A DNA stretch of 64,000 nucleotides from Candidatus Saccharimonadia bacterium (GCA_036488585.1 DASXHH010000009.1:64399-128398); one strand, 5' to 3'. Counted from the stretch's first letter, positions 1 through 51,416 are shown. Notes: generated from the letters alone by a model not told the origin. Translations and numbers: made by a program.

Positions 1-266
1 ACGGCCGCGCCCACAGCATCCACCAGCAGGCGCACCTTTACGCCGGCCCTGGCGCGCTCGCACAGTGCGTCGGCGAACTCATTGGCGATGTGACTGCGCC
101 AATAGACGTAGGTGGAGAACTCAATGGTGCTCTTTGCCTCGCGAACGGCTTCCAGCATGGAGGGGAAAATTTCGTCACCATTCTGCAAAATGATGAGCGA
201 ATTTCCTGGCCGGTAGGGTGACCCGGCGGCCGCCTCGGTGACATGAATAAAAGGATTTGAAGACAT
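1..266 (-). CDS. Phospholipase D family / cardiolipin synthase-like protein, 5' fragment (gene continues past window start)
   Basis: Absent from the ORF track because it runs off the window edge. Minus-strand ATG at 266-264 with an open frame down to base 1. Translation MSSNPFIHVTEAAAGSPYRPGNSLIILQNGDEIFPSMLEAVREAKSTIEFSTYVYW...AGVKVRLLVDAVGAA resembles the N-terminal region of Cls/PLD enzymes. It lies 17 nt downstream of the lipase stop on the same strand. Confidence 0.55.
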   Translation of the reverse strand, partial: MSSNPFIHVTEAAAGSPYRPGNSLIILQNGDEIFPSMLEAVREAKSTIEFSTYVYWRSHIANEFADALCERARAGVKVRLLVDAVGAA

Positions 267-8603: not shown

Positions 8604-9274
8604 AGCGTTTCTCCTTTGTAATCATTAAATATGGCCAGACTGGGAGCCTGCTTAAGGGCTTGAGCGGATTGCTCGGTATAGGGCAACTGCTGGCTCAACC
8701 GTTCGAGTTGGGGGTGCTTGGACTCGCCCACCGCGTATACCACGGCCTCGTCGAGGCGGGCGATGGCGGCCGGGGTGCTGGAGATGCGACGGAAGTCGCC
8801 GGCCTCATAGTAAGCCGCCAGTTCTACGTGGTCGGGGGCGTTTTGAGCGGGTAGGCCGGCGGTGTGGCCGTCGGGACCGATACCGAAGAGGCCCAGGTGG
8901 TACCCACCGGCGGCCAGCTCGTGCGCCAGGACGTCGGCAAAAGCAGCCGTGTCGGCGGCAATATCTGAGCCGGTGAGTACTGGCAGCAGCCGCGCGCCAG
9001 GCAGCTTAAACCCGGCACGAGCGAGCTGGAACCAGTTGGAATCGGGGTGCCCAACTGGCCCAGGGCGCTCGTCGGTGAGGGTAACGGTGAGGTGCTCGAG
9101 CGGAGTTCCGCCCAGCGCCGCCGCCACTTCGACCTCTACAGCGACGGCCGAGCCACCCGAAACTTCCCACAGCACCCGCTCCCCTGCCCGTAGATGAGTG
9201 CCGATGGTGTCGGCCAGATATTTTACGAGCGGTTGGGGTGACGAAATTTTAATAAAACGCGGTGTCATAGCCAA
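8600..9274 (-). CDS. pgl: 6-phosphogluconolactonase
   Basis: 224 aa with the GIGPDGHTAGL motif characteristic of Pgl/DevB and operon context with zwf and gnd. Confidence 0.8.
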   Translation of the reverse strand: MAMTPRFIKISSPQPLVKYLADTIGTHLRAGERVLWEVSGGSAVAVEVEVAAALGGTPLEHLTVTLTDERPGPVGHPDSNWFQLARAGFKLPGARLLPVLTGSDIAADTAAFADVLAHELAAGGYHLGLFGIGPDGHTAGLPAQNAPDHVELAAYYEAGDFRRISSTPAAIARLDEAVVYAVGESKHPQLERLSQQLPYTEQSAQALKQAPSLAIFNDYKGETL

Positions 9275-9702
9275 TGTCCGTCGCGCATGAGCATACGGCC
9301 CTCCAATTCTTCCTCACTTTGCCAAGCCTGTACCGATACCGGCGTCATCACAAGGTAAACCCAATCGCCGGTGGCGGTGCGGGGGTCCCACTGGTTGCGA
9401 GCGTTAAAGTGTTCGCTAACTTGGGGGTCGGCCTCGGTCACGGGTACGAGTTTTACCTGAACATCGAGCAAGAGCACGTCTCGGGTGTCACCGACCGCCA
9501 GCCGTGCGAGCTCTGAGGCCTTGATATTGCGCACGGTGATGGAAGCTGATGGAGTGGCCGCAACCACACGCGTACCATCCCAATCGAGCGAGAATGGTAC
9601 CAGATGAGGACGGCCGCGGTGATCGGCGGTGGCTACCCAGACGTCACGCTGAGTTTGCAACTGGTAGTGAGCATGGTCTTGGCGGACCTTGAGTGTTCGC
9701 AT
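9265..9702 (-). CDS. PPOX class F420-dependent / pyridoxamine 5'-phosphate oxidase family protein
   Basis: 145 aa small split-barrel flavin-binding fold (HRGRPHLVPFSLDWDGTRVV...). Heads the pgl-gnd-zwf transcription unit. Confidence 0.5.
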   Translation of the reverse strand: MRTLKVRQDHAHYQLQTQRDVWVATADHRGRPHLVPFSLDWDGTRVVAATPSASITVRNIKASELARLAVGDTRDVLLLDVQVKLVPVTEADPQVSEHFNARNQWDPRTATGDWVYLVMTPVSVQAWQSEEELEGRMLMRDGHWL

Positions 9703-37807: not shown

Positions 37808-39469
37808 CTAGAGCTGGTCGACGAGGGATTTAACCTTAGCCTGAACTACCTGCCCACTGTCTCGGGAAAGATGACTGACGGGCGGAATTTCCAAGAAAAA
37901 GGTGGAGCCGTGATTGAGCTTGCTTTGGGCCCAAATATGCGCGTTTATTCGATTGGCAAGCTCAAGACAGAGGTAGAGGCCGAGTCCGGTACCGCCAGTT
38001 TCTCGGGTACGATAGTCTTCGGCCCGGAAGAACTTAGTAAAGAGCTTGCTTTGGTTGGCGGCCGAGATGCCAATGCCAGAGTCGGCGATAGAGAAGAGGA
38101 TTCCGCCAGCCGGAGTGGGCCTGACGGTTATGGTCACTCCGCCTTCCTTAGTGTATTTGATGGCGTTAGAGACGAGGTTTTCCATTATTTCGTGAACATG
38201 GTGCTCGGTAGTAAGGACCGTGGGCAGGTCGGGCAAGTACTGCACTTTTAGAACTATGCCCTTGTTGGTAGCGACAGGCAAGAAATCTTTGTAAACTTGC
38301 TCAACCAGGGGTCTAACCTGGAGCGGTTTGATCTCGACGGTGAGGGCGTCGCGCTGGGCTTCGGCCAAAGTGGTAATGTCCTTCACGAGGGCAGCTAAAA
38401 AGATGACATTGCGCTGAGCTTGTTCAGCGAGAGTGACGGCTTCGGGCTTCATGTCCTTCTTGCCGAGCAGCATAGTGGACAAGGCTGCCTCTGCTATACC
38501 TAACGGGGTGCGAAGTTCATGCGAAGCCACAGAAATGAACTCCTGGCGTTGTTCATCCAGGGATTTTTCATTAGTGACGTCTTTTAATAACACGATGTAG
38601 TGATGGGTCGAGTCCTTGAGAGTGTTCGGCGTGATAGTGGCCTCGAGGCCTACCTCGGCACCGCTAGCCGACACGGCCATAAGACCCCGGTGCCGCATGG
38701 TTTTTTCGTCGGAGCGAGCGAGGTTAATCAGGCTGATCGAATCTTTTTTCGGAGAATGCAGCGCGAGAAGCTTATCGATATTTTGCCCGACGATGCTTTG
38801 CTCGGACTGGATAAGATCACCAAAAGCAGCGTTAGCTAGCTGTACTTTGCCGTCGTCATCGAGCAGGACCACCGCATCAGGCATTGAGTTGACGAGCGCA
38901 AGTAGATTGCTGCTTTCAAGCCGGTTTTGCTCAGCCATTTGCGAAAGAAGAACGCGTTCCTGATGCTCGTTGCGGGTGAGCTGTTCCACTATAAAGCCAA
39001 CACCGATGAACAGCCCCAGGCCCACGATCATGGATCTAGTTAGGCCCAGTGTGATTGGAGGGTAGAAAGCTACGGTATTAGTGAGGGTAATTACGGCGAG
39101 CTGAGCGATGAGCGAAATTAACATGCCGCGCAGACGATACCAATAGGTGGCGGCGATGAGAGTGATCACAAAGAGACCGGAATAGACCGTTATAACAGGG
39201 CCGGCAGCAAATAAGAGCAGGCTTACAAAAATATTATCGATAACCAAGGCCGCTGCTTGGGACTCAAAAAACTTTTGATGAGATTTAAGTGTCAGCAGGC
39301 GAAAGCAATAAAAGAGGGTCATACCGACAACAATTGCGAATAGTGCCATCGTCTGAGGTATGTGCCAGGGAATCGTAACGGCCACGAGACAGATAAGGAA
39401 GGGCCTGAATGTCAGCGCGGCCCGTTCGAGCTTATTGCTCTCCTGGTTCTGAGGGATTGTATTTGGCAC
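37808..39469 (-). CDS. Sensor histidine kinase (multi-TM N-terminus, PAS, HisKA, HATPase_c)
   Basis: 553 aa with 5-6 TM helices, a PAS-like region, H-box SVASHELRTPL, N-box NLVSNAIKYT and G-boxes DSGIGI/GGTGLGL. Confidence 0.85.
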   Translation of the reverse strand: MPNTIPQNQESNKLERAALTFRPFLICLVAVTIPWHIPQTMALFAIVVGMTLFYCFRLLTLKSHQKFFESQAAALVIDNIFVSLLLFAAGPVITVYSGLFVITLIAATYWYRLRGMLISLIAQLAVITLTNTVAFYPPITLGLTRSMIVGLGLFIGVGFIVEQLTRNEHQERVLLSQMAEQNRLESSNLLALVNSMPDAVVLLDDDGKVQLANAAFGDLIQSEQSIVGQNIDKLLALHSPKKDSISLINLARSDEKTMRHRGLMAVSASGAEVGLEATITPNTLKDSTHHYIVLLKDVTNEKSLDEQRQEFISVASHELRTPLGIAEAALSTMLLGKKDMKPEAVTLAEQAQRNVIFLAALVKDITTLAEAQRDALTVEIKPLQVRPLVEQVYKDFLPVATNKGIVLKVQYLPDLPTVLTTEHHVHEIMENLVSNAIKYTKEGGVTITVRPTPAGGILFSIADSGIGISAANQSKLFTKFFRAEDYRTRETGGTGLGLYLCLELANRINAHIWAQSKLNHGSTFFLEIPPVSHLSRDSGQVVQAKVKSLVDQL

Positions 39470-39471
39470 GG

Positions 39472-39879
39472 CTAGCCCTCTCGTGTCTCTTTAGCCTGCG
39501 GTAGGGTTAAAAGCTCGCGGAGCTTCGCGACCATATCAGCTAGCGATATCTCGGATTTGACCTCATAGTCATCGGCGCCGAAGATGGCGGCGCGCTTACG
39601 ATCGTCTAGATCGCCGAGGGCCGAAAACACCAGGACCCGGATTTTGCTGGTGGCGGGGGTGCGGCGGATGAGCTTTAACACGTCGAAGCCCGACATCTTC
39701 GGTAGCATGAGATCGAGTAGAACTAGGTCGGGTTTAAATTCGAGGATGCCTTCCAGCGCATGCTCGCCATCGGAGACAACGCTGATCTCGAAGCCTTCCA
39801 TTTCCAGGCGCATTCTGTACAGATCAGCTAGAACTTCGTCGTCGTCTACTATGAGAATTTTAGGCTTGGATTTACTCAT
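39472..39879 (-). CDS. Response regulator, receiver domain only (CheY-like)
   Basis: 135 aa REC with ILIVDDDE and the phospho-acceptor Asp in LVLLDLMLP. It lies 2 nt upstream of the HK gene. Confidence 0.8.
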   Translation of the reverse strand: MSKSKPKILIVDDDEVLADLYRMRLEMEGFEISVVSDGEHALEGILEFKPDLVLLDLMLPKMSGFDVLKLIRRTPATSKIRVLVFSALGDLDDRKRAAIFGADDYEVKSEISLADMVAKLRELLTLPQAKETREG

Positions 39880-40682
39880 ACTGTATTGGAGGAGGCCAGC
39901 TTAGCGGGTGTCCTTTCGGGTGCCACTAAGGCGCTCTGGACTCGATAGGCAATACCGACAGCGATGAGTAACGTGCCCACAATATAGATGGCGTCGGCCG
40001 CGGCGTAGGCGCCGGCCGAGCGGGCTAGATCGTGCATCGGGCCGCCGATAATTATGATTAGAAATCCGGCCGCCAACAGAACTGACTTAGTGCGCTTGGC
40101 AAGACTGCCCTTGGCTGCGTTAATTGCGAATAAGATAGCGGCCGGCAGCAGCGAAAGCAGACAGGCTACTACGATGCCCACCCCGACGATGGGGGCGGCT
40201 CGGAATTCAGTGATATCGAGGGTCGTGTTATAGACCGGTTGGACTCCCCAGATCATGGTCTTGGCGTTCACAATGGTGATGGCGATGGTGAATAAGATCC
40301 AGACCACCGTTAAAATGCGTCCCTTACCAGCGAGCTGAGGAACAATTGAGATAACCATTAAAGAGATGCGAATGCAGGCAAGGTAAAGGAAAATGTGGCC
40401 AACCACATACCCCCAGGCCATAGCGGTGGAAAAAGCGGAGGGCCCAACATGCAGCCAATAAATGGGTAGCGACATGCCCGCGGTGAAGAGGGTCATGAAC
40501 AGGAAGAAGCTGCGCAAATAGGCCAGAGATTGATTGGGAGCTGTGTTGGCCTGGCGGATTCTCTGGCCTAGATAGAGCCAAGCCGCGAACGATATTAGAC
40601 AGCCAAGCGAAGTTGTAAGTCCTGTGAGTGGGATGGAAGGAACCATAACCATAATATATAGTGGTTTGTCTATGATTTCCAT
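39876..40682 (-). CDS. Seven-TM integral membrane protein (putative sensory/accessory component of the two-component operon)
   Basis: 268 aa with about 7 predicted TM helices. It overlaps the RR gene start (ATGA). No retinal-binding Lys or known family recognised. Confidence 0.4.
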   Translation of the reverse strand: MEIIDKPLYIMVMVPSIPLTGLTTSLGCLISFAAWLYLGQRIRQANTAPNQSLAYLRSFFLFMTLFTAGMSLPIYWLHVGPSAFSTAMAWGYVVGHIFLYLACIRISLMVISIVPQLAGKGRILTVVWILFTIAITIVNAKTMIWGVQPVYNTTLDITEFRAAPIVGVGIVVACLLSLLPAAILFAINAAKGSLAKRTKSVLLAAGFLIIIIGGPMHDLARSAGAYAAADAIYIVGTLLIAVGIAYRVQSALVAPERTPAKLASSNTV

Positions 40683-40808: not shown

Positions 40809-41537
40809 ATGGCATCTTGGATTGCCTATACGCTTACGCTTTGCGATAATAAATCCATATTGTTTACGATGCGATTTATGAACTACACCAGCCGGGTCAG
40901 TCTCGGTAACACGTTGGCGCAAAGACTCAAGGAGTTCCGGGGAAAGGGCGCTATCGTTGTTTGCCTGGAAGAGAGCTCGCTGTTGACCTGCTTGACCATA
41001 GCCAGCCAGATTCATGCGTATGTCTATCCCCTCTTGTTCGAGCCGATCTACAGCCAAGACAGTATGCATCAGCCCCTGGGCGCCTACGATCAGGATGGTG
41101 AGCTTTGCCCAATTCCCGGCACGCACGTATCGGAGAGCGATCTGACTCCGGAGATGCGATCGATGCTTAAGCACTTACATGGCCCGGCCGTTGAGACGGT
41201 GATGAACGAAAAGCAGAAGTTTGGCATGGAGCTAGACAAATCGACACTCAACGGACGGGATGTAATTTTGGCGGTCGATATTCTAACGAGCGTTATACCA
41301 GTAATAGTGGCGCGCAAGCTGTTGAGCGAAATAGCACCCAAGAGCGTAACGGCTGTGGCAGGTAACGCCACCCTGGAGACTGCCCAGCTCCTGCGACTGA
41401 CCGCCGCGCGCACCGAGATTCTGGACGTCATAAGCGGCATAACCTTTGATCCAAACCATTATTTCGAAGATAGGGACGGCTATTCGACAGACCAACAGCA
41501 CACTTTAACGCGTAACATCGCCAGCTACTGGCAGTAA
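40809..41537 (+). CDS. Phosphoribosyltransferase-like protein (COG1926-type) with degenerate PRPP-binding motif
   Basis: Start at ATG 40809 with AAGGAAG 9 nt upstream. Layout GKGAIVVCLEESSLL...GRDVILAVDILTSVIPVIVA...FDPNHYFEDRDGYSTDQQHTL parallels predicted PRTases, but VDILTSVIP replaces the canonical VDDGIATGAT. Lies 10 nt upstream of the MoxR gene. Confidence 0.4.
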   Translation: MASWIAYTLTLCDNKSILFTMRFMNYTSRVSLGNTLAQRLKEFRGKGAIVVCLEESSLLTCLTIASQIHAYVYPLLFEPIYSQDSMHQPLGAYDQDGELCPIPGTHVSESDLTPEMRSMLKHLHGPAVETVMNEKQKFGMELDKSTLNGRDVILAVDILTSVIPVIVARKLLSEIAPKSVTAVAGNATLETAQLLRLTAARTEILDVISGITFDPNHYFEDRDGYSTDQQHTLTRNIASYWQ

Positions 41538-41547
41538 TGAAGGAGTA

Positions 41548-42630
41548 GTGATGCCAGAATCCCCAAACTTGCAATCACTGGCGGGTTCAATGCCAGTAAA
41601 ACAGGCGGCCGTGCGCGGCCAGCGGAGCTTTTCGCCCCAAAATCCGGCTATCCCGGATTCGGATCTGGCGCGGGCCCAGCGCTTACTGGATACGGTCGCG
41701 GGGCTGTTTAGGACCAAGGTGGTCGGCCAGGAAAGCTTGCTTTTAAATCTGCTAGTGGCGTTGTTGGCCAACGGTCACATTTTGCTAGAAAGTGTGCCAG
41801 GGCTGGCCAAGACTACCGGCGCACAGACCCTAGCCGACGCCACGAAGGCGAGCTTTCGGCGCATCCAGTGTACCCCGGACCTGTTGCCGAGCGACATTAT
41901 TGGTTCCCAGATTTTTAACTACTCGAAGGGCACTTTCGAGACTCAGCTGGGACCGGTGCACGCCAACTTCGTGCTGCTGGATGAGATTAACCGGTCGAGC
42001 GCAAAAACGCAGAGCGCCATGCTTGAGGCTATGCAGGAGCGGCAGACGACCATTGGTGGCCAGGTATTCAAATTGCCTCAGCCTTTCGTGGTGCTCGCGA
42101 CCCAGAACCCAATTGAGCAGGAAGGCACCTACGAACTGCCGGAAGCCCAGCTCGACCGTTTTCTCCTGAAAGAGATTCTGACCTACCCCAAGCCAGTCGA
42201 GGAAGTAGAGGTGCTCAACCGCATTGAATCCGGGGTGTTCGATACAAAGTTGGACGCCTCCCGCTCCATCGACGTGCCCGACGTAGTGTACTTGCAGCAG
42301 CTCGTGAAGAAGGTGTACGTCGACGAGTCTATCAAGCAGTACATTGTGAACATTGTTTCCAGTACCAGGTACCCGGCCAAGGTGATTGCACCCGATCTGG
42401 CCCGGTACGTAGAGAACGGCGCGAGCCCGCGTGGAAGCATCACGCTGATGCAGGTGGCCCGGGGCTTGGCATTGATTAAGGGCCGTGATTACGTGACGCC
42501 GGATGATGTGAAGCAGATGCGATACAGCGCCCTCAGGCATCGCATAATCCTTAACTTCGAGGCGGTCGCGGACAACGTGCACCAAGAGGCGGTGATTGAC
42601 GCAATTTTTGCGGCGGTACTAGCGCCGTAA
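41548..42630 (+). CDS. MoxR family AAA+ ATPase
   Basis: 360 aa with Walker A ESVPGLAKTT, Walker B FVLLDEINR, sensor 2 and the MoxR C-terminal lid. GAAGGAG Shine-Dalgarno. Confidence 0.85.
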   Translation: MMPESPNLQSLAGSMPVKQAAVRGQRSFSPQNPAIPDSDLARAQRLLDTVAGLFRTKVVGQESLLLNLLVALLANGHILLESVPGLAKTTGAQTLADATKASFRRIQCTPDLLPSDIIGSQIFNYSKGTFETQLGPVHANFVLLDEINRSSAKTQSAMLEAMQERQTTIGGQVFKLPQPFVVLATQNPIEQEGTYELPEAQLDRFLLKEILTYPKPVEEVEVLNRIESGVFDTKLDASRSIDVPDVVYLQQLVKKVYVDESIKQYIVNIVSSTRYPAKVIAPDLARYVENGASPRGSITLMQVARGLALIKGRDYVTPDDVKQMRYSALRHRIILNFEAVADNVHQEAVIDAIFAAVLAP

Positions 42631-42642
42631 CCGGGAGTATCT

Positions 42643-43530
42643 ATGGCAAGTTTGCTGGTAAAAGTTCGCCGCAAGATGTCCATAATCTCCCACCGCAAGG
42701 TTAGGAGTGCCCTTGAGGGCGAGTACTCTTCGGTGTTTAAGGGCCGGAGTATGGACTTTGAAGACTTGCGCGAATACATCCCGGGAGACGATGTAAAAGA
42801 CATCGAATGGCGGGCCACCGCTCGCTCGGGACAGGTACGTATTAAGAGGTACGTAGCCGTTCGAAAGCACAACATCATGCTGGTGGTGGACACCGGCCGC
42901 TCGATGGCCGCGACGGCACCGAGCGGTGAGATCAAGCGCGATATTGCCGTGATGGCGGCCGGGGTGATTGCTACAGTGGCGCAGAAGCACGAGGATGTGA
43001 TCGGGCTGACCGCCGGCAATAGCAAAACCATTTACCACATGCCGCTTAAGGGCAGCCGGCCGCATATTGAGCGAATGCTCCAGTATATAAATTCGCATAT
43101 TACGACAGACGGGCCGCCTAGTGACCTCACCGCACTGCTCGACTACGTGAAGCGCACCAACCGGCGGCGTATGCTGCTGATTATTATTAGCGACAACCTG
43201 CAGTTTGCATCGGCTCAAGAACAGCTGCTGCGGCGGTTGGCGGCTCAACACGAGCTTCTGGTGATTACTATTGATGACCTGGACCCGAGCGATGATGCGT
43301 GGAAGGAGCGTAACCTTTTCGACGTCGACACGCCGGTGCCGCTGCCATCGTTTGTGCGCCGGCAAAAAGCGGTGGAGGCGGCGTTCCAGGCGCGGGTGCG
43401 GAGCGAATGGCAGAGTGGCAGCCACACGCTGGAGCGAGTTCGGATCAGCAGCGTCAGGATTGATAGCGAAGATACTGTGATCAACCAAATTGTGCGGCTA
43501 CTGGAGGAGCATAGGCGTGCTCGTCGCTGA
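42643..43530 (+). CDS. DUF58 domain protein (MoxR-partner, VWA-like)
   Basis: 295 aa. The conserved DUF58 protein that follows MoxR in Bat-type operons, with motif ...FEDLREYIPGDDVKDIEWRATAR. Confidence 0.75.
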   Translation: MASLLVKVRRKMSIISHRKVRSALEGEYSSVFKGRSMDFEDLREYIPGDDVKDIEWRATARSGQVRIKRYVAVRKHNIMLVVDTGRSMAATAPSGEIKRDIAVMAAGVIATVAQKHEDVIGLTAGNSKTIYHMPLKGSRPHIERMLQYINSHITTDGPPSDLTALLDYVKRTNRRRMLLIIISDNLQFASAQEQLLRRLAAQHELLVITIDDLDPSDDAWKERNLFDVDTPVPLPSFVRRQKAVEAAFQARVRSEWQSGSHTLERVRISSVRIDSEDTVINQIVRLLEEHRRARR

Positions 43531-43993
43531 TATCCTCAACCCGCCCATTCAATACGACATCATCTGGTTTATCATCGGTACGCTGGTATTCCTGACAATT
43601 CTAATATGGTACGGCTTGGTGTTTTGGCTAACCCGGCATCAGACGATTCAATCACTCGATAGCTTGAAGCAGCTGCCCGTAGGTGGCGAGATGGAGCGGC
43701 TAAAAACGAAGTACCTCAAACTAATTGAACAAGCGTACCAACGCTATCTAACTCGAGAATACAAACTGCGCGACTTGCATAGAACTTTGAGCATGATCAC
43801 GCGTACCTTTGTGCTGGAGGCCAAGCATTTCCCGGCTCCATACCTGACGCTGGGAGACCTGGTGTTGTCGCCTTACCCGAATCTGACTCGACTGATTAAG
43901 GCCTACTATCCTGAAGAGTTCGCACTGATTACGCATGCCGAGGCCGAGATATCAGTTCAGCAGGCAAAGGATTTCGTAAACCAATGGGTCTGA
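43517..43993 (+). CDS. Small two-TM membrane protein of the Bat-like operon
   Basis: GTG at 43517 with GGAGGA 8 nt upstream; the ORF track has 43490. Two TM helices and a helical tail. Position matches the DUF4381-type slot in Bat operons. Confidence 0.35.
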   Translation: MLVADILNPPIQYDIIWFIIGTLVFLTILIWYGLVFWLTRHQTIQSLDSLKQLPVGGEMERLKTKYLKLIEQAYQRYLTREYKLRDLHRTLSMITRTFVLEAKHFPAPYLTLGDLVLSPYPNLTRLIKAYYPEEFALITHAEAEISVQQAKDFVNQWV

Positions 43994-44985
43994 TCTTCTG
44001 GTGGATGCTGGTGATTTGGGTTGTCGGCATCGCGGCCTACTGGCTGATACGCTACCTGCTGCATGCCCGCCGAAAACGCGAAGACGAGAGCCAGTATGTT
44101 CCGGTGGCACATAGTAACCGGCTGACCCAACTGCAGGAATACGTCGTAGCGCTAAAGCTGTACCGGCGCTTTACGACCGCGATTGTAGTGTTACTGACCA
44201 CCTGCTTATTGTCGGCCATAGTACTAACGGCGCGGCCGGCGACGATATCGGTGATTAAGCCCGCACAACAGAATCGCGACATCATGCTCTGCCTGGATGA
44301 CTCGGGGTCGGTGCTGCGCGAAGACACGACGCTACTTGATCGCTACAGCACATTGGTGAGCAGTTTTAGCGGCCAGCGTTTTGGACTGACCCTGTTCGAT
44401 AGTTCGGCGGTGACCATCATTCCGCTAAACGATAACTACCAGCTGATTACGCAGCGGCTAAAGGTGGCAGCCCAAGCATTTCAGGCTCAAAAAGGGGCCA
44501 CTTTTACCCAGCTAACGAACGGAACCCTGGCCGGGTTTACTGAAGGCACCTCGCTGGTGAGCGACGGGTTGGCATCTTGCATTCTCCATATGGGAACCAA
44601 CATCCAGAACCGGTCGCAATCGATAATTCTGGCCACCGACAATGAGGTTAACGGCAAGCCGGTTGTGGGGGTGGCACAGGCGATTGTGATGGCTAAGCAG
44701 CGCAATATTCATGTGTTCGCGATTGATCCCGGGGTGGCCGACTCGAAACTGTCGGCGGATCACGCTCAGCTTCAGGTGATCGCAAAGGAGACCGGTGGCA
44801 ACTACTACACGCTTGATAGTCCCAGCACGGTTGACGGCATTATTACGGCCATCCGGGCGCAGCAGGCGGCCAATTACGTAGGCGTGCCGCAGCTGGCCAC
44901 GAATGACAACCCGGCGCCGTTTATTTACCTGGCCGCATTGCTGGCGATGGCGTCGATCGCGCTCTTGTGGAGGCTGGAATTATGA
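43984..44985 (+). CDS. VWA domain protein (BatA-like)
   Basis: 333 aa with N-terminal TM helices and MIDAS motif DIMLCLDDSGSV. Confidence 0.7.
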   Translation: MGLIFWWMLVIWVVGIAAYWLIRYLLHARRKREDESQYVPVAHSNRLTQLQEYVVALKLYRRFTTAIVVLLTTCLLSAIVLTARPATISVIKPAQQNRDIMLCLDDSGSVLREDTTLLDRYSTLVSSFSGQRFGLTLFDSSAVTIIPLNDNYQLITQRLKVAAQAFQAQKGATFTQLTNGTLAGFTEGTSLVSDGLASCILHMGTNIQNRSQSIILATDNEVNGKPVVGVAQAIVMAKQRNIHVFAIDPGVADSKLSADHAQLQVIAKETGGNYYTLDSPSTVDGIITAIRAQQAANYVGVPQLATNDNPAPFIYLAALLAMASIALLWRLEL

Positions 44986-45998
44986 AACTACAACCAGTTA
45001 TATCCTGGTGGCTGCTGGTGCCCTACCTGATAGCCGTAATGGCTGCGGGCGGGTGGCAGATACTGAAGGTGCGCAAGCAAGAACGCAGGGTCGTGCTGAG
45101 GTGGGTGCGCCGAGCAAGCTTGTTGCTACTGCCGGGACTATTAGCCCTGGGGCCGAGCATTCCTGGCGGCACCTCCAGCCCGGGGGTAGCCAACCTGGAC
45201 GTGATATTTGCAGTCGACACCACGCCGAGTATGGCGGCACTCGATTACCATGGAACTGGGCAACGGTTAGATGGAGCAAAGGCCGACTTGTTGGCGCTAG
45301 TGGACAAAATGCAAGGCGCGCACATAGAAATCATCACGTTTGATTCGAACGCCAATATTATCCTGCCATTTACGAGCGATCTAACTGCCCTATCGTCGGC
45401 GGTGCAGGGTATGATTCCGGAGGTTAGTAGCTACTCGCAGGGCAGCGCCATCGATGAGCCCAAGGATCTCATTGTTCAGGAGCTCAAGAACAGCAAGACG
45501 GCCTTCCCACAGCACAAACGGCTGCTGTATTACCTGGGTGACGGAGAGCAGACGGTGAGCGCCGCCGTGCAATCGTTTGCCCCCATTGCTCCCTACCTAA
45601 ACGGCGGGGCGGTGCTCGGCTACGGCACCACTGTGGGGGCCCAGATGCTCGACTACACCGGAGACAGCACCCAGGCCACTACCTACATCCAGACCGCGGG
45701 CCCATCCAGCCAGCTGACCCCGGCCGTTTCGAAGATGGATCCCACGACACTCACGAATTTTGCGAGCCAGATGCAGGTAGCGTACCAGAACCGCAACGCG
45801 GGTGGCGCGGTAGATAGCGTATACAAAGCCAGCAAGGCTCAAATCGCCGTCGACAACAGCCAGCACCTAATTCGATACCTCAGCTTGTACTGGCTGCTGG
45901 CTATCCCGTTTGCGGGGTTGGTGTTTTGGGAATGGAAAGCCGTGGTGATTAAGTTCTTGGATTTGCGGCAATACCGAGAAGGAGCAAAGCGTGGCTGA
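44967..45998 (+). CDS. VWA domain protein (BatB-like)
   Basis: 343 aa with N-terminal TM, MIDAS variant IFAVDTTPSM and a C-terminal TM. Confidence 0.7.
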   Translation: MEAGIMKLQPVISWWLLVPYLIAVMAAGGWQILKVRKQERRVVLRWVRRASLLLLPGLLALGPSIPGGTSSPGVANLDVIFAVDTTPSMAALDYHGTGQRLDGAKADLLALVDKMQGAHIEIITFDSNANIILPFTSDLTALSSAVQGMIPEVSSYSQGSAIDEPKDLIVQELKNSKTAFPQHKRLLYYLGDGEQTVSAAVQSFAPIAPYLNGGAVLGYGTTVGAQMLDYTGDSTQATTYIQTAGPSSQLTPAVSKMDPTTLTNFASQMQVAYQNRNAGGAVDSVYKASKAQIAVDNSQHLIRYLSLYWLLAIPFAGLVFWEWKAVVIKFLDLRQYREGAKRG

Positions 45999-46734
45999 CC
46001 GCGGTATAAGACGCTTGCTGAAGGTGAACGCGGCGATGTTTGCCCGGCGGCCGCCTGCGATCATGGTTGGACCCAACTTCCAGCCGTTCGCGTTTTCGCA
46101 GATTGAATACGATACCGAGCGCAAGAAGAAGCGGCGAAAGTTGCTCTTTTGGTCGCTGCCAGCGGTTTTCATCGTGCTACTGGTAGCCTTGTATTTCTTG
46201 CTGCCCACGCCGCTAACTTCCGAAGCGATTCAGAATTATAACCATAAAAATTACCCCTACTCCAGGATCTGGCTAACGCCGCTAACCTGGGCGAGCCCCC
46301 AGCAGTTCGTGATTGCGTTTAACAGTGGGACGGTGGATACGCAGCTTGGCAGTTACACGCTGGCCCAAGGTGAGCTGCTGCGAGCCCTGCAACTGGCCAC
46401 GCCGGCTCAACGCTGTATGGTCCTGCAAAACCTGGTCTACTCCTTTGACGCGCACGCCAACCTGCTCTTCCGCCAGGGACAAAACCAAAGTGCTACCGAT
46501 TTGACATCGGAGGTAGCCACGATTAAGCAAGCCAACCCAAAGTGTTTCCTCCAGCCTAAAGGTGGGGGCGGTGGAGGTGGCGGCGGCAACAAGCAGAACA
46601 AGCCAGCGGATCTTTTGACGGCCGCTCAGGAGGTACAACTTCAGCAAAAGAACCAGGCCGGCGATCAAATGGAGCAGCAAGATTTTCAGCAAAATAGCGT
46701 TAACCCCAATAGCCCCAATATAAAGCCATGGTAA
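45991..46734 (+). CDS. Membrane protein with poly-Gly tract and Gln-rich tail
   Basis: 247 aa with one TM and KGGGGGGGGNKQNK, then a Q/N-rich C-terminus. It overlaps the upstream VWA gene. Family unknown (BatD/E-slot). Confidence 0.4.
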   Translation: MADRGIRRLLKVNAAMFARRPPAIMVGPNFQPFAFSQIEYDTERKKKRRKLLFWSLPAVFIVLLVALYFLLPTPLTSEAIQNYNHKNYPYSRIWLTPLTWASPQQFVIAFNSGTVDTQLGSYTLAQGELLRALQLATPAQRCMVLQNLVYSFDAHANLLFRQGQNQSATDLTSEVATIKQANPKCFLQPKGGGGGGGGGNKQNKPADLLTAAQEVQLQQKNQAGDQMEQQDFQQNSVNPNSPNIKPW

Positions 46735-46766
46735 ACACAAGCATTATCGCGGTAGGATACTAAGCA

Positions 46767-48059
46767 ATGAGCAAACGTCGGAAGCCAAACCGCATAGCCC
46801 GCATGCTAAGGTCCCGTAAACGCCTGCAGCCATTGGTGCTGCCGGCGCTGGTGCTGGTGGTAATTTTTGGCCTAGTGGCGTCTCGGATTATGACTGCGTC
46901 TTTTGCGGCGGTGTACCCGAACCCCCAGATTGGGCAGACGTGTGGTGGTTTGGATATCGCATTGGTGGCAGATGTGTCCGGAAGCATCACGCAGGATCAG
47001 ACGGAATTTACCGAGATGCAAACGGCCTTCACGGACTTCGTGAGTAGTCTGCCGCCGGGCACTAATACGCTGTTTTCGCTCACCCAATTTGATACTAATG
47101 CGGTTGTATTGGAAAAATTTACTAACAACGCCGCGACTCTAGATAACGCCATTAATAACTTTAGCGGTGGCGGGGAGACGAACTGGGTCGATGGCTTAAA
47201 AGCCGGCTACAGTACGTTTTCAGGCCTTCCAGCTCCCGCGGCGGGCGCCAAACCGGTCCCGAAGTTGCTCATAATTGCCACCGATGGTGACCCGACCGTG
47301 CCCCGGAGCACCGCGTTGAGTGACGCCATTACGGAAGCCAATACCATTAAACAGGCCGGCGTCCATGTGCTGGCGGTGGGGCTGGGAAGCTCCCCGACGA
47401 TCTCTAACCTAGAAGATATCACGGGTACTAACCTCAACACCGGCGATATCAACACGGACGTAGTGACCACCAAGTTCGATACACTGGACGCCGCCATGCT
47501 CAACATTGCTTCAGCTACTTGTGGTGGCACCGGCACTGGCACCGGCACTGGCGGCACTGGCAACGGCACCAACGGCAATGGCAACGGCACAGGTGGTACC
47601 GGCAATGGTAGCGGTACCGGCGGGACTGGCACCGGTAGCAATGGCACTGGTAGCGGTAACGGAGATTCGGCCACGCCGCAGCCGAGCTCCTCGCCACAGC
47701 CGGCGCCGGTGCCCGATCCCAACCAGCACCCCATAAAGGTGCCGGTGGTGGTACCGAACCCGCAGCCAAGCACAGCTCCGGTCCCCTCCCCTAGCCAAAC
47801 TCCAAATCCGGCGCCGGCTCCTAAATCGCAAGGCAACCAGGTTCAGCCGCCGGTACAGTCGCCGTCCATATTCTTTGACGGCAAGGCATACGCGCCGGGC
47901 AGCGCCCCCGATAGCGCCGGTGCTAATGTGGCCAGGCCGACGTTTAACTGGTGGTACTTGGTGATTGGCCTGGTCATAGCCGTGGCAGGGATTGCTACAT
48001 ACATATTCTGGCAGCGGCGACAGGCTACGCCTCGCATCAAGTCCAAATCTAGAAGATGA
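46767..48059 (+). CDS. Surface VWA domain protein with Gly-Thr/Asn repeat, Pro-rich stalk and C-terminal membrane anchor
   Basis: 430 aa. N-terminal signal/TM, MIDAS DIALVADVSGSIT, GTGTGTGTGGTGNGTNGNGNGTGG... repeat, P/S/A-rich segment, then a C-terminal TM (WWYLVIGLVIAVAGIATYIFW) with an RRQA tail. Confidence 0.65.
   Translation: MSKRRKPNRIARMLRSRKRLQPLVLPALVLVVIFGLVASRIMTASFAAVYPNPQIGQTCGGLDIALVADVSGSITQDQTEFTEMQTAFTDFVSSLPPGTNTLFSLTQFDTNAVVLEKFTNNAATLDNAINNFSGGGETNWVDGLKAGYSTFSGLPAPAAGAKPVPKLLIIATDGDPTVPRSTALSDAITEANTIKQAGVHVLAVGLGSSPTISNLEDITGTNLNTGDINTDVVTTKFDTLDAAMLNIASATCGGTGTGTGTGGTGNGTNGNGNGTGGTGNGSGTGGTGTGSNGTGSGNGDSATPQPSSSPQPAPVPDPNQHPIKVPVVVPNPQPSTAPVPSPSQTPNPAPAPKSQGNQVQPPVQSPSIFFDGKAYAPGSAPDSAGANVARPTFNWWYLVIGLVIAVAGIATYIFWQRRQATPRIKSKSRR
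47524..47662 (+). repeat. Imperfect tandem hexa/nonanucleotide repeat (GGCACY / GGYAAY units) encoding (G-T/N)n
   Basis: ggcaccggcactggcaccggcactggcggcactggcaacggcaccaacggcaatggcaacggc... About 140 nt of 6-9-nt units lie inside the VWA gene. Confidence 0.6.
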
Positions 48060-48074
48060 CCAGCAGACTAATGG

Positions 48075-48422
48075 CTAATCTGACAGCACAGCCAAGGCGA
48101 TGGCAGCAGTCGCAATAGCCAGGTCCCGGAAGGTGATGGCAAGCAATTTGAGACCTGTCAGAATGATGCCCAACATTGTGAGCGCCGAGAGGATGCCGGC
48201 ATACCGCAGGTACTTGCCGCTCACTAGCCAGAGGGCAAGTAGTAGCTCGTAGGCGCTGAAGATTTTTAGTAGGATGCCGGCAGGGGCGATATTGGTGGCG
48301 AAGGCCGGCAGATAGCCGACCCAATCCTGCGGCGATGCTAAAGAGCCCGCTGCCGCATACAGGAACACCGCGGCGAGCCCCAGTCTAAGTATTAATTTGG
48401 CGAGTTTTACTTTTGCTGCCAT
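48075..48422 (-). CDS. DoxX family membrane protein
   Basis: 115 aa with 3-4 TM helices and DoxX-like sequence. It is last in the ECF-sigma transcription unit. Confidence 0.6.
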   Translation of the reverse strand: MAAKVKLAKLILRLGLAAVFLYAAAGSLASPQDWVGYLPAFATNIAPAGILLKIFSAYELLLALWLVSGKYLRYAGILSALTMLGIILTGLKLLAITFRDLAIATAAIALAVLSD

Positions 48423-48838
48423 TACTCGATAGTTATTTTGGCCGTGTCACCTGGGTTTAAATGGTTGTGAAAGCCGAAAGTACCCGTCTTGGTGAGAGTA
48501 GCTGTAGCGCTGGCGCCAGGCGCGATAGTCCCGACGTTTAAGTCTGGGTCATCGGTGTGGACCGGGTGAGGGTTGGAATCCACCTGAATCTCTTCGCTCG
48601 TCTGATTTGTGAAGGTGACCGAGCCGCCGGATTTGATAGCGGTCTGTGCGGGGCTAAAGCCGCTAGAAGTATATGTAATCACAGCGGCGGCTTGCTTACT
48701 GCTACTGGCTGGGGTACTAGCCGGCGCGTTTGAACTATCAGCTGCAGACTTGGTCGAGGGCTTCGTAGCCATGAGGGCGACTCCAGCAACTACAACAATG
48801 ACGATTAGGCCAATTACGATGGTGAGGGTACGTTTCAT
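48422..48838 (-). CDS. Secreted cupredoxin-like domain protein
   Basis: 138 aa with signal/TM, a Ser/Ala-rich linker and a beta-rich C-terminal domain carrying His pairs (NPHPVH, FHNH) in a cupredoxin-like arrangement. Confidence 0.4.
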   Translation of the reverse strand: MKRTLTIVIGLIVIVVVAGVALMATKPSTKSAADSSNAPASTPASSSKQAAAVITYTSSGFSPAQTAIKSGGSVTFTNQTSEEIQVDSNPHPVHTDDPDLNVGTIAPGASATATLTKTGTFGFHNHLNPGDTAKITIE

Positions 48839-48895
48839 AGGTTCTCCGTTAAGCTTATGCTTTGATAAACGTATATGAAAGATTTTTGTTACACT

Positions 48896-49450
48896 TTAGT
48901 CTTTATCTTGGTTTAGTTCGGTTAGAACGGAAGATATTTGTTGCTTTTCAACGGGAGTGGCCATGGAGCCGGCCTGAACCAGATTGTCGTGGCAATAGTC
49001 GAGGGCAGCGTAATTCTTGGTTTTAAGGCCCTGCATATCGGTCTTGTAATCGCTCAGGGCGGCCGTGACTAGGTGATCACTTTGCTTGGTTGCAACTAGC
49101 ATTCTCACTTCCTGCGCCCGGTGCATCATTACGACAGCCTTGTAATCAGGTTGGGTCAACATCGCAACCCGCTCGGATGTCCGCTTCACGGGGTATAGCC
49201 AGCTACCCGGTAGGCTGGTTTGGGCGATCGCCACAACCAAGGTGCCGGCAGCCAACCCAGCGGCGGCGGTGCCAAGCATTGGCCAGAAGCCGAACGCGGC
49301 TGGCCAGAGCCGCTTTCGATGCGACTTGGTGTACTGCGGCTCAGCGCCTTTGAGCTGCGAAACTGACATAGCTAGCTGCATCAGTTCGTCGGCCTCGACT
49401 GGGCCGGCTCCCGCCGAAAGAAGTTCCTCTTTTAAGTTAGGCTTATTCAT
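48896..49450 (-). CDS. Putative anti-sigma factor (single-pass membrane)
   Basis: 184 aa. It overlaps the ECF sigma gene stop by 8 nt. Cytoplasmic N-terminal segment, one TM and a periplasmic domain. Confidence 0.45.
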   Translation of the reverse strand: MNKPNLKEELLSAGAGPVEADELMQLAMSVSQLKGAEPQYTKSHRKRLWPAAFGFWPMLGTAAAGLAAGTLVVAIAQTSLPGSWLYPVKRTSERVAMLTQPDYKAVVMMHRAQEVRMLVATKQSDHLVTAALSDYKTDMQGLKTKNYAALDYCHDNLVQAGSMATPVEKQQISSVLTELNQDKD

Positions 49451-49958
49451 TGCGTTCCATTAACTGCTTTAACTGTTTTAGGGCGCGATATTGCAACACC
49501 CGGACGTTGCCCTCAGTGGTGCCCAGAATTTCTGCCACCTCACGAGCGCTAAGTCCTTCGATGAACCTTAGGGTAGTCACTACCTTTAACTTGTCCGGCA
49601 GCCTGGTTAACGCCCGCCCGAGCGCTAGCTGCACCTGCTCGACGTCATAATCGTAGTCTATGCCGGGGCCCTCCAGCTGGTCAGACAGCCCCGGGAGGTC
49701 ATCTAGCAACACGGGTTTTAACTTGCGCCAATGATCGGTCAGGAGGTTGCGGGCAATCCGGTACAACCAGGCTTTGACCGAGCCGCCGGTGAAGCTTTCC
49801 CGCGCCTTCCAAGCTCTTTCAAAGGTACTGGCGGTAAGGTCTTGTGAGAGCGCTTGATCCTTGGTCTGCCAGTAGAGGAAGCGGTAGATGGCTTCCTCGT
49901 ACTGCTCGTAATGATCCTCAAACTGTTCCCTTGAGAGCAATTTGTTCCTCTCTAGCAC
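49443..49958 (-). CDS. RNA polymerase sigma-70 factor, ECF subfamily
   Basis: 171 aa with region 2 (YRFLYWQT...DLTASTFERAW) and region 4 HTH (LSAREVAEILGTTEGNVRVLQYRALKQL). Confidence 0.8.
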   Translation of the reverse strand: MLERNKLLSREQFEDHYEQYEEAIYRFLYWQTKDQALSQDLTASTFERAWKARESFTGGSVKAWLYRIARNLLTDHWRKLKPVLLDDLPGLSDQLEGPGIDYDYDVEQVQLALGRALTRLPDKLKVVTTLRFIEGLSAREVAEILGTTEGNVRVLQYRALKQLKQLMERNE

Positions 49959-50322: not shown

Positions 50323-50462
50323 CAGCGACGGCACATATGTTCCCGATGTGATTTCCGGAAGTGCTTAAATGAATTTTGCCCAAATCCATGAGCATCAGGT
50401 ACTATTCTGTTATGCTTACCCTTCGTCATAAATGGTCGACCCGGCACAACTCCGTAGCCCGT

Positions 50463-51416
50463 ATGACCAAATTGACCAACCGGGTGCTAATGCTCCAGCC
50501 AAAGGCAGCGGGCTTCGTCGCGCTATTTGTTGCCGCCGGAACTGTGCTCATAGTTGCATATGCCGGATCCGGTTTCTTTGTGGTTCTTTCGCCTCAGCAG
50601 GGTGTAATCCAGGGTAACGCCGGCATCGTCAGTAATGCCTCGGCCGTGGATGGGTCGGCGGTTAAATTTGGTCTCCAGACGCCCGCTCCACCCACGCCGA
50701 CCCCAAGCCCCAATCCCGGCTCTAGCCCCAGTCCTAGCCCTACAGGCGCCTCTGGCTGCAGCGCAAATGGTGTTGTCGCTCCCTGTGTCGGCGGCCCCAC
50801 AACGGGCGCCGCTGGGTGGGGTACGCCCGCCTTTGATGAAGAGTTCAGCGGCAGTGCTCTGAATACCAGCGTCTGGGACGCTCACGACGGCTGGACTAAC
50901 CAGAATAATGTCACTGATCATGCTAGCAACGTGTCGGTTACGGGCGGTGAGGCCATTCTCACTTTGGTCTCATCGGGCTCAGGAGCGGCGATTGAGACGA
51001 AATCTTACGCGCTGCCGGTCGGCGGCTTTGCTGAAGCCCGGGTCGAGTTTCCGGGGAGCGGCACTACTATATATAACTGGCCCGCCTGGTGGATCAGCGG
51101 GCCGAACTGGCCGACCGACGGAGAGAGCGATATTGCCGAGGGCCTCGGCACACTTACCGTAAACTACCATTCGCCGTCCGGCGCCCACAACCAGGGCACC
51201 GTCCCGGGTACCTGGTCAAATGCCTACCATATTTACGGCATATCCCGTGGCCCTAGCTCCTGTAAAGTCTATTGGGACGGAACCCTGGTAAAAACTTATT
51301 CCACGGACGACACTGGCAAGGGCGAAAATCTTATACTTACCGCAGGCTCGGGCAACACCGGCGCCTACGGCACCGCCTCCGAGGTCAAAGTAGACTACGT
51401 ACGTGCGTGGAATTGA
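50463..51416 (+). CDS. Secreted glycoside hydrolase family 16 (laminarinase-type beta-glucanase) with PT-rich linker
   Basis: Start set to ATG 50463 (signal anchor MTKLTNRVLMLQPKAAGFVALFVAAG). PTPTPSPNP linker, GH16 catalytic motif ESDIAE (ExDxxE) and WPAWW. Confidence 0.65.
   Translation: MTKLTNRVLMLQPKAAGFVALFVAAGTVLIVAYAGSGFFVVLSPQQGVIQGNAGIVSNASAVDGSAVKFGLQTPAPPTPTPSPNPGSSPSPSPTGASGCSANGVVAPCVGGPTTGAAGWGTPAFDEEFSGSALNTSVWDAHDGWTNQNNVTDHASNVSVTGGEAILTLVSSGSGAAIETKSYALPVGGFAEARVEFPGSGTTIYNWPAWWISGPNWPTDGESDIAEGLGTLTVNYHSPSGAHNQGTVPGTWSNAYHIYGISRGPSSCKVYWDGTLVKTYSTDDTGKGENLILTAGSGNTGAYGTASEVKVDYVRAWN

Follow-up and report, generated by a model that had tools for sequence, protein, structure and literature searches.

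The sequence suggests that eight genes in a 64,000-nt window (the whole stretch of DNA analyzed) from a Candidatus Saccharimonadia MAG form one operon for a Bat-type MoxR system. Gene 1 would be an added, non-catalytic accessory subunit, and gene 8 a likely client or partner; on balance, we hold this reading to be the probable one. Eight ORFs are present on the + strand between 40878 and 48059; no gap between neighbours exceeds 32 nt, and four of the junctions are stop/start overlaps. The features are as follows:

40819-40866: conserved non-coding block of about 60 nt around the promoter-like site
40822..40850, + strand: promoter-like site, TTGCCT-17 nt-GATAAT with TG (consensus scan)
40878..41537, + strand: gene 1, 219-aa pseudo-phosphoribosyltransferase with a COG1926-type fold, PRPP-binding elements lost
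41548..42630, + strand: gene 2, MoxR-family AAA+ ATPase (Pfam AAA_3 2.1e-59, AAA_lid_2 7.8e-21)
42643..43530, + strand: gene 3, DUF58 protein, VWA-like (PF01882 DUF58 2.5e-33, VWA_2 6.9e-6)
43517..43993, + strand: gene 4, small single-span membrane protein, DUF4381-like, with a GTG start after GGAGGAG
43984..44985, + strand: gene 5, BatA-like VWA membrane protein (Pfam VWA 5.3e-10)
44982..45998, + strand: gene 6, BatB-like VWA membrane protein (Pfam VWA_2 2.6e-11)
45991..46734, + strand: gene 7, membrane-anchored TPR protein, BatC-like
46767..48059, + strand: gene 8, clade-restricted stalked VWA surface protein (Pfam VWA 1e-16)
47525..47639, + strand: imperfect tandem DNA repeats with periods of 6, 12, 21, and 27 (Tandem Repeats Finder)

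Operon extent and the Bat-type core

Gene 1 is followed by a 10-nt gap, with AAGGAG ahead of the gene 2 start and just past the gene 1 stop, and the DUF58 gene comes directly after moxR with a gap of 12 nt. Genes 3 and 4 overlap by 14 nt (GTG at 43517), genes 4 and 5 by 10 nt, and genes 6 and 7 by 8 nt, whereas a gap of 32 nt separates genes 7 and 8. The preliminary description mentioned several ATGA overlaps; one is literally ATGA, that between genes 5 and 6 (ATG at 44982), and the other three are longer. Because Saccharibacteria genomes are compact, tight packing alone is weak evidence for a common function in such an operon. Judged by gene order, the arrangement is far beyond chance: the same succession of genes is seen again in about 50 distinct loci whose flanks are unrelated. 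ORFs, junctions, and domains all agree with the proposal of a single operon-like unit built around a Bat-type MoxR/DUF58/VWA core.

The gene 2 translation carries Walker A (PGLAKT), Walker B (LLDEINR), and the NPIEQEGTYELPEAQLDRF motif. Gene 3, which has no membrane span (no hydrophobic span was found), is 41-95% identical across related loci. Gene 4 had been described as an unclassified membrane protein with two transmembrane segments; it has one hydrophobic span and is better placed as a DUF4381-like member of the standard set, PF14316 (DUF4381) being matched weakly by 5 of 15 homologues (best E 0.0043). Its start at 43517 is consistent with the homologues.

Gene 5 has two N-terminal spans, a VWA domain, and a C-terminal span. 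NCBIfam BatA and BatB were the best named matches of genes 5 and 6, at 1e-11 (44.5 bits against a model cut-off of 380) and 1.6e-13 (50.5 bits against 350), respectively. On these scores, genes 5 and 6 encode the same kind of protein as BatA and BatB and are not their equivalogs. The translations show MIDAS motifs (DxSxS) in gene 5 (DDSGS) and gene 8 (DVSGS), with variants in gene 6 (DTTPS) and the DUF58 protein (DTGRS).

Gene 7 was correctly recognized as a membrane protein with a poly-Gly tract but left unclassified; it is a TPR protein of BatC-like type. The window copy had no Pfam match, and TPR_2 was matched by 12 of the 16 aligned orthologues (best E 7e-8). The protein has two invariant Cys, a poly-Gly/Gln-rich tail, and a C-terminal KPW. 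Both gene 4 and gene 7 also occur in actinobacteria-like operons. Neither BatD nor BatE was found among the eight proteins by Pfam or NCBIfam matches. By domain content, genes 2-7 together look like an ordinary Bat-type set.

Gene 1, a pseudo-phosphoribosyltransferase at the head of the operon

Gene 1 had been drawn from 40809. Its start is most likely 40878 (MNY...), because all homologues in the alignment are 216-231 aa long and begin with MNF/MYF, and because 40809 also lies upstream of the conserved promoter-like block. This block (40819-40866) is almost the same in the window as in a related locus (L012), despite a synonymous divergence of about 1.3 in the adjacent genes, and the site within it may act as a promoter. 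Upstream of gene 1 in other clades, the simple promoter pattern was not enriched (7/47 loci vs 9.5% background).

No Pfam model, PF00156 (Pribosyltran) included, matched gene 1 at E<=0.1, and the precomputed Pfam field was '-' for every family member listed. The gene-1 family profile matched PDB 1wd5 (TT1426) at E 3e-5. A Foldseek search with the AF2 model (pLDDT 88) returned the same structure as its top match (E 4e-12, TM 0.75-0.79); many UPRT and HPRT chains ranked next. Going by the model, the fold of gene 1 is that of a type I phosphoribosyltransferase (PRTase), and its nearest counterpart is Thermus thermophilus TT1426 (COG1926).

Three PRPP-binding elements were compared: the PPi loop (PRGG), the RK motif, and DDGxATGxT with its TG.T loop, the last defined as a hydrophobic run, two acidic residues, and then xxTGxT. 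In all gene-1 family members, LPRGGV is replaced by CLxESSLL and VRKIGxP by YPLxxxP. The PRPP motif, VILVDDGIATGxT in TT1426 and canonical COG1926, has become VILAxD[VI]xxxxxP; the second Asp is the only key residue of it that is kept, and the TG.T 5'-phosphate loop is absent in every member. The preliminary description, which called gene 1 a COG1926-type protein with degenerate PRPP elements and pointed to the loop VDILTSVIP, is borne out on both fold and loop. Gene 1 shares with COG1926 its fold, its length, an N-terminal F/Y-x-x-R...G motif, and G-R ahead of the core strand, whereas a new GN motif and a conserved C-terminal HYF...YW helix set it apart. The former cleft positions keep S36/S37, D137, and G165-N166 (family-alignment numbering), and other residues are kept elsewhere; R6, R127, D134, N163, D183, and Y195 are invariant among members down to 26% identity. 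Gene 1 probably lacks catalysis. At the end of the sheet where the active site used to be, however, it has conserved polar residues, which, against the accessory-subunit reading, may reflect a new ligand or chemistry rather than a purely structural role.

A small-molecule sensor was the role first suggested for gene 1. As such, it would take up PRPP, a nucleotide, or (p)ppGpp in the old active site, gate MoxR activity, and tie surface remodelling to the nucleotide supply that the epibiont draws from its host. PRTase folds bind ligands of this kind without catalysis being the point, PurR and PyrR being regulators built on this fold. One of the Foldseek matches, 5vog, is a PRTase-like protein crystallized with ppGpp, and gene 1 has conserved residues at the tips of those strands from which the classical pocket is built. 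However, the loss of the PPi loop, the RK motif, and the TG.T loop in every member, with no basic or Gly-rich replacement, argues against canonical PRPP or nucleotide binding, as does the failure of PF00156 to match even at E 0.1. We regard a sensor as unlikely.

The selection data bear on another possibility, namely that gene 1 is an enzyme with a changed, PRPP-free reaction that makes or removes a small molecule or modification needed by the Bat complex. The dN/dS of gene 1 is about 0.07 (MoxR, 0.05; DUF58, 0.03), so the gene is under purifying selection and is not decaying. Such strong selection, together with polar residues that stay invariant at 26% identity, would suit an enzyme. No known catalytic constellation is recognizable, however, the nearest characterized relatives are all PRPP-dependent, and the Saccharibacteria parent family is itself already half-degenerate (SDG for DDG), which makes a changed enzyme rather improbable.

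That parent appears to be a Saccharibacteria-wide PRTase-like family ("tier 2") that matches PF00156. Both families come from the same phylum and have the same length and a C-terminal HYY...W extension, and the tier 2 HMM matches gene 1 at 1e-23 to 1e-39; tier 2 proteins keep GGV and SDG...G.S, which gene 1 does not. In the three loci examined, tier 2 genes sit in housekeeping neighbourhoods and do not adjoin MoxR, whereas the gene-1 family, unlike COG1926, invariably opens a MoxR operon. From these matches, gene 1 derives from the larger family sited elsewhere in the genome.

The preliminary description suggested a synteny comparison to see if gene 1 leads the operon in related genomes too. 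Within Saccharibacteria, the outcome is strongly positive: all 62 low-GC, Saccharibacteria-type loci in which the upstream DNA extends far enough have a gene-1 homologue ahead of MoxR, at a spacing of -20 to +36 nt, and these loci hold 50 distinct gene-1 sequences at 26-85% identity. The flanking genes are unrelated from one locus to another; in L003, the entire block of genes 1-7 sits between fusA and tuf. Identity to the window drops in parallel for gene 1 and MoxR across clades, as expected for co-inheritance. No fusion of gene 1 with another operon member was seen. The named carriers are all Saccharibacteria, including human oral strains (oral Nanosynbacter). The operon is not universal, since it seems to be missing from one cultured strain, Southlakia epibionticum ML1. 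The expectation of a leading gene 1 does not extend to the homologous high-GC, actinobacteria-like operons, where it was found in 0 of 8, with no homologue upstream even at E<100. By this synteny, gene 1 is a fixed, selected part of the operon across Saccharibacteria. That it is functionally unrelated to the Bat genes, kept adjacent and co-transcribed through genome compactness only, draws on the density of patescibacterial genomes and the housekeeping surroundings of its tier 2 relatives, but is very improbable given adjacency in 62/62 loci over very deep divergence with both flanks changing, movement of genes 1-7 as a unit, and a sequence family of operon-linked copies distinct from the housekeeping paralogue.

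Gene 8 and a possible mechanism

An alignment of eight orthologues upholds the described architecture of gene 8, with its VWA domain, Gly-Thr repeat, and C-terminal anchor. After an N-terminal span come the VWA domain, in which DVSG of the MIDAS motif is invariant, a G-T/N repeat, and a spacer rich in Pro; the conserved motif PSPFYDGKxYAPGS and the C-terminal span with its basic tail complete the protein. The repeat is encoded by the tandem DNA repeats at 47525..47639 and differs in length among orthologues. Gene 8 had also been counted as an operon member, yet it falls outside the conserved unit: orthologues occur only in the window's near clade (L001, L005, L007, L011, L014, L015, and L016), where the distance from gene 7 varies, and none was found in L003 or any distant locus. 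Sortase anchoring of the LPXTG type was rejected, as no LPXTG motif precedes the C-terminal span and the NCBIfam LPxTATN signal reaches 15.5 bits, below its cut-off of 32; the C-terminus is a plain membrane span with a basic tail. The earlier idea of an adhesin is a plausible guess from this layout alone.

In the arrangement we favour, a MoxR AAA+ ATPase and a VWA-like DUF58 protein would form a cytoplasmic module, and the DUF4381-like protein, the BatA-like and BatB-like VWA proteins, and the BatC-like TPR protein a membrane module whose VWA and TPR domains would face outward. This topology is suggested by the positive-inside rule, applied to the gene 5 loop between spans 1 and 2, and by the Borrelia BatA-like protein BB0173, whose VWA domain was found by experiment to be exposed to the periplasm (PMC5700661); the two invariant Cys of gene 7 fit an outside location. 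To this set, Saccharibacteria would have added gene 1, a paralogue of their own COG1926-type phosphoribosyltransferase with the PRPP-binding elements lost, as a non-catalytic adaptor or regulator of the MoxR-DUF58 module. Because its stop abuts the MoxR ribosome-binding site, gene 1 may be made in step with MoxR, and its product may physically associate with MoxR/DUF58. The window's clade would further have added gene 8 at the end of the operon. Its product carries a VWA domain on a long stalk rich in Gly/Thr and Pro, with the C-terminal span as anchor, and is probably either a client of the complex or a binding partner that faces outward.

A more far-reaching version, which we consider quite doubtful, makes the pseudo-PRTase a Saccharibacteria-only third cytoplasmic subunit that turned a host-type operon into an epibiont-specific machine controlling outward VWA/MIDAS proteins. 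If so, an operon like that of the actinobacterial hosts, and possibly acquired from them, would have come under the control of gene 1, which would govern assembly or activation of these proteins, either as a sensor for a metabolite derived from the host or through docking onto MoxR/DUF58. Among the proteins so controlled would be the stalked product of gene 8, with a part in host-cell attachment.

Comparison with known MoxR systems

[quoted passage not shown] Assignment to this conflict/defence class was rejected, as AAA_3 scores 199 bits and PADLOC returned no match for the operon. Neither the operon nor its flanks contain beta-propeller, kinase, FHA, effector, or signalling genes.

High-GC operons, one of them from Frigoribacterium (Actinomycetota), match genes 2-7 in the order MoxR-DUF58-(small membrane)-VWA-VWA-TPR. 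Their MoxR and DUF58 proteins are 58-67% and 42-48% identical to those of the window, respectively, and they lack homologues of gene 1 as well as gene 8.

The Bat (Bacteroides aerotolerance) or MoxR-DUF58-VWA clusters (PMC3557215, PMC5700661) have an unsettled biochemical role, and their aerotolerance or stress phenotype is disputed even in Leptospira (PMC3557215). Integrin binding has been reported for the Borrelia VWA member BB0172 (PMC5700661). We found no mention of the gene 1 and gene 8 additions in these Bat papers, or in literature searches on a PRTase/MoxR link and on Saccharibacteria. The clusters of Bacteroides, Leptospira, Borrelia, and Francisella and the window operon have in common MoxR, DUF58, a small membrane protein, a pair of multi-span VWA proteins resembling BatA and BatB, and a TPR protein, all in one same-strand cluster. 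The window operon differs in showing no match to BatD or BatE, in matching the BatA and BatB models at 44-50 bits against cut-offs of 350-380, in its host, a monoderm-like ultrasmall epibiont, and in two additions, a PRTase-like first gene and, in the near clade, a stalked VWA last gene.

Layout of the operon and the start of gene 1

Eight consecutive open reading frames (ORFs) occupy the + strand at 40.8–48.06 kb of the window, with a divergent unit upstream of gene 1 and a convergent gene downstream of gene 8. Their identities and junction spacings, the latter taken straight from the window sequence, are as follows.

Genes of the operon (40878-48059, + strand) and their junctions
Gene 1: phosphoribosyltransferase (PRTase) look-alike; 10-nt gap to gene 2, AAGGAG directly after the gene 1 stop
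Gene 2: MoxR AAA+ ATPase (AAA_3, 2e-59; AAA_lid_2, 8e-21); 12-nt gap to gene 3
Gene 3: DUF58 protein (2.5e-33); 14-nt overlap with gene 4
Gene 4: starts with GTG at 43517, GGAGGAG ahead of it; single-span protein, DUF4381 weakly matched by 5 of 15 orthologues; 10-nt overlap with gene 5
Gene 5: VWA membrane protein, best named match the Leptospira BatA model, far under its cut-off; ATGA overlap with gene 6
Gene 6: starts with ATG at 44982; VWA membrane protein, best named match the Leptospira BatB model, far under its cut-off; 8-nt overlap with gene 7
Gene 7: TPR protein (TPR_2 in 12 of 16 aligned orthologues, best 7e-8; window copy without Pfam match); 32-nt gap to gene 8
Gene 8: stalked VWA protein

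The operon is thus in substance as the preliminary description had it, with three amendments: an ATGA overlap occurs at one junction and not at several, gene 4 has one hydrophobic span and not two, and gene 1 should start at 40878. The deposited annotation (start at 40809, 242 aa) is probably wrong, to judge from sequence comparison, as its additional stretch runs into a promoter-like, non-coding block that is conserved, and every other homologue begins at the position of 40878. Within this block of ~60 nt, almost identical in the window and in the homologous locus L012, lies a sigma-70-like site (TTGCCT-17-GATAAT, 40822-40850). The block has been kept although synonymous sites of the adjacent genes are near saturation in the same pair, which supports a promoter directly 5' of gene 1 and 40878 as the start of the gene. 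Across 47 distinct loci, the simple pattern TTGnnn-16..18-TAnnnT preceded gene 1 in seven, against a background of 9.5%, and was not enriched, which confines the promoter evidence to the window/L012 pair. A terminator scan of the operon revealed nothing convincing between genes; matches fell within coding sequence.

Genes 2-7 are the standard Bat-type set, and BatD and BatE are absent from the operon. Gene 7 encodes one membrane span, two invariant Cys residues and a C-terminal KPW. Bat clusters have been described as encoding membrane proteins with VWA and TPR domains that are linked to MoxR and whose function is unresolved (PMC3557215), and the VWA domain of a BatA-like Borrelia protein was placed on the periplasmic side by experiment (PMC5700661). 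The strongly basic loop between spans 1 and 2 of gene 5 predicts the same outward topology for its VWA domain. As PADLOC defence-system models gave no match, a conflict-system reading of the operon was dropped.

The neighbourhood of the operon in the window contains the following features.

37808-40682, - strand: divergent unit encoding an unannotated membrane protein of 268 aa with several spans, a response regulator with only a receiver domain, and a PAS histidine kinase whose long N-terminus is membrane-spanning
48075-49958, - strand: convergent genes for DoxX, a cupredoxin-like secreted protein, a DUF5667 anti-sigma-like protein and an ECF sigma factor
50376-51416, + strand: GH16-like secreted protein, beyond the DoxX/ECF group

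The divergent unit shares a 195-nt intergenic region with the operon and was not found beside it elsewhere. Almost all 2-kb windows have a positive GC skew, so the cumulative skew climbs along nearly all 64 kb.

Fold, motif loss and selection of gene 1

A Candidatus Saccharimonadia MAG encodes a hypothetical protein that matches the gene 1 product at 100% identity. Searches of Pfam and NCBIfam yielded nothing useful, with no match to Pfam models; the assignment of gene 1 rests on a family profile and on a structural model. A profile of 22 gene 1 homologues matched Thermus TT1426 (PDB 1wd5), a COG1926 predicted PRTase, with an E-value of 3e-5. The AlphaFold model (pLDDT 88) returned 1wd5 as the top Foldseek match (E 4e-12, TM 0.75-0.79), with uracil and hypoxanthine PRTases ranked next. 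An exhaustive HMM search with the gene 1 family gave 25, 92 and 778 representatives at E-value limits of 1e-30, 1e-10 and 1e-3, respectively, and the motifs of these matches sort into three tiers.

Motifs in the three tiers of HMM-search matches
Canonical COG1926: PPi loop LPRGGV; RK region VRKIGxP; PRPP motif VILVDDGIATGxT; next strand AVPV
Intermediate (tier 2): PPi loop ALxxGGVxVG; RK lost; PRPP motif ILVSDGLxxGxS; next strand ATPxA
Gene 1 family: PPi loop CLxESSLL; RK region YPL; PRPP motif VILAxD[VI]xxxxxP; next strand GN.T

All gene 1 homologues examined carry the fully degenerate form, and the collection searched lists no Pfam domain for family members. Even so, dN/dS in one genome pair was 0.07 for gene 1, compared with 0.05 for MoxR and 0.03 for DUF58, and a set of residues is invariant across homologues down to 26% identity. 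Gene 1 is therefore a PRTase look-alike that is under selection and has presumably lost catalysis. The preliminary description proposed that it might act as a nucleotide sensor; this is possible, but the idea is weakened by the loss of every phosphate-binding element. A changed enzymatic activity of this motif-stripped but selected protein is less likely. The same search also returned an odd 1037-aa protein (P0176) with thirteen matches to profile positions 27-63, a repeat of the strand-1/helix-2 segment.

Tier 2, which is still recognised by PF00156, is a large Saccharibacteria family of at least 3835 clusters. In three loci (L092, L093 and L094; gene at 9001-9678), its genes lie amid housekeeping genes and do not adjoin MoxR; a convergent Crp/cNMP-binding regulator gene follows in two of the three. 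With SDG for DDG and no RK motif, tier 2 is itself partly degenerate. The tier-2 HMM matches gene 1 at 1e-23 in the window, whose clade is the most diverged, and at up to 1e-39 in the oral clade. Together with the housekeeping location of tier 2, these matches suggest that gene 1 is a paralogue of this family, which looks to have been recruited to the MoxR operon and to have lost its remaining PRPP motifs afterwards. No tier-2 paralogue was found within the 64-kb window.

Gene 1 is a fixture at the head of the Saccharibacteria operon

In three loci with distant homologues, the order gene 1-MoxR-DUF58-small protein-VWA-VWA-TPR is alike and the flanks are unrelated. Scanning one genome per species gave five loci, every one labelled Candidatus Saccharibacteria. 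A metagenome scan seeded with DUF58, and not with gene 1, added 80 loci at 41-95% identity, making 91 with the 11 from earlier look-ups. Among these, a gene 1 homologue was detected by HMM and BLAST at -20 to +36 nt before MoxR in all 62 loci with enough upstream DNA. These 62 loci (39-58% GC) hold 50 distinct gene 1 sequences; eight loci with upstream DNA but without gene 1 have 65-75% GC, and one of the eight encodes an exact match to a Frigoribacterium protein. Neighbours on either side of the operon differ from clade to clade. Given this linkage, gene 1 as a mere hitch-hiker is less likely. The gene table of Southlakia epibionticum (the Tn-seq strain) contains no DUF58 or VWA entry, and this strain appears to lack the operon.

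The window itself has 51-66% GC in 2-kb windows, higher than the 39-58% of the loci carrying gene 1 homologues. In one Saccharibacteria MAG (L003/L009, 10001-15819), the entire block of genes 1-7 sits between fusA and tuf, interrupting an otherwise conserved rpoBC-rpsL-rpsG-fusA-tuf-rpsJ region.

Outside Saccharibacteria, genes 2-7 have their closest homologues in DNA of 65-75% GC (L088, L047, L061, L064, L072, L081, L085 and L086), and the DUF58 protein of L088 exactly matches one from Frigoribacterium (Actinomycetota). As the hosts of cultured Saccharibacteria are Actinomycetota, transfer of the operon from host to epibiont is conceivable.

Gene 8 is a lineage-specific add-on outside the operon core: it is restricted to the near clade of the window, absent from L003 and all distant loci, and separated from gene 7 by 32 nt to 1.1 kb. 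Alignment of eight orthologues bore out the repeat-bearing architecture first noted for it. An N-terminal membrane span leads into a VWA domain whose DVSG is invariant. Next comes a G-T/N repeat, which varies in length and is encoded by imperfect tandem repeats in the DNA, then a Pro-rich spacer, a conserved PSPFYDGKxYAPGS motif and, at the C terminus, a span with a basic tail. Sortase anchoring was rejected, as the protein lacks an LPXTG motif and its signal match falls under the cut-off. In the human-associated clade (L023, 14346-17056), the TPR gene is followed on the same strand by two ORFs (344 and 560 aa) that lack annotation and might play an equivalent role.

Proposed working and comparison with known systems

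We propose that MoxR and its VWA-like partner DUF58 would form a cytoplasmic ATPase module, and genes 4-7 a membrane module with VWA/MIDAS and TPR domains facing outward. To these, Saccharibacteria would add the gene 1 product as a physically associated, non-catalytic accessory subunit, and the clade of the window a stalked VWA surface protein (gene 8), with a possible part in attachment.

Saccharibacteria live as obligate epibionts on a very small gene set, and their surface biology is mostly unassigned; the operon offers a candidate, open to testing, for roles in the envelope or in attachment. The conserved seven-gene unit is defined here across soil, rumen-type and human oral lineages. The unannotated protein heading it is a selected, non-canonical PRTase derivative whose named members, annotated as hypothetical or 'predicted phosphoribosyltransferase', come only from Saccharibacteria, including Candidatus Nanosynbacter sp. 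TM7-053 and TM7 oral taxon 349. It would be a clean case of an AAA+ chaperone operon that has taken on a pseudoenzyme, and the operon could help to explain what Bat/MoxR-DUF58 systems do, a long-unresolved matter. Saccharibacteria are naturally competent and their genetic manipulation is now feasible (PMC10633639), and conservation in cultivable oral members may open a way into both MoxR-DUF58 function and epibiont surface biology.

Literature searches that combined Saccharibacteria and MoxR, von Willebrand or aerotolerance, or MoxR and phosphoribosyltransferase, found no account of the operon or of the PRTase link; apparent matches concerned host Actinobacteria, Haliangiales or unrelated topics. 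The operon by itself reveals no new kind of system: a constant PRTase-derived first gene, for which we found no literature match, heads a core of a known operon kind.
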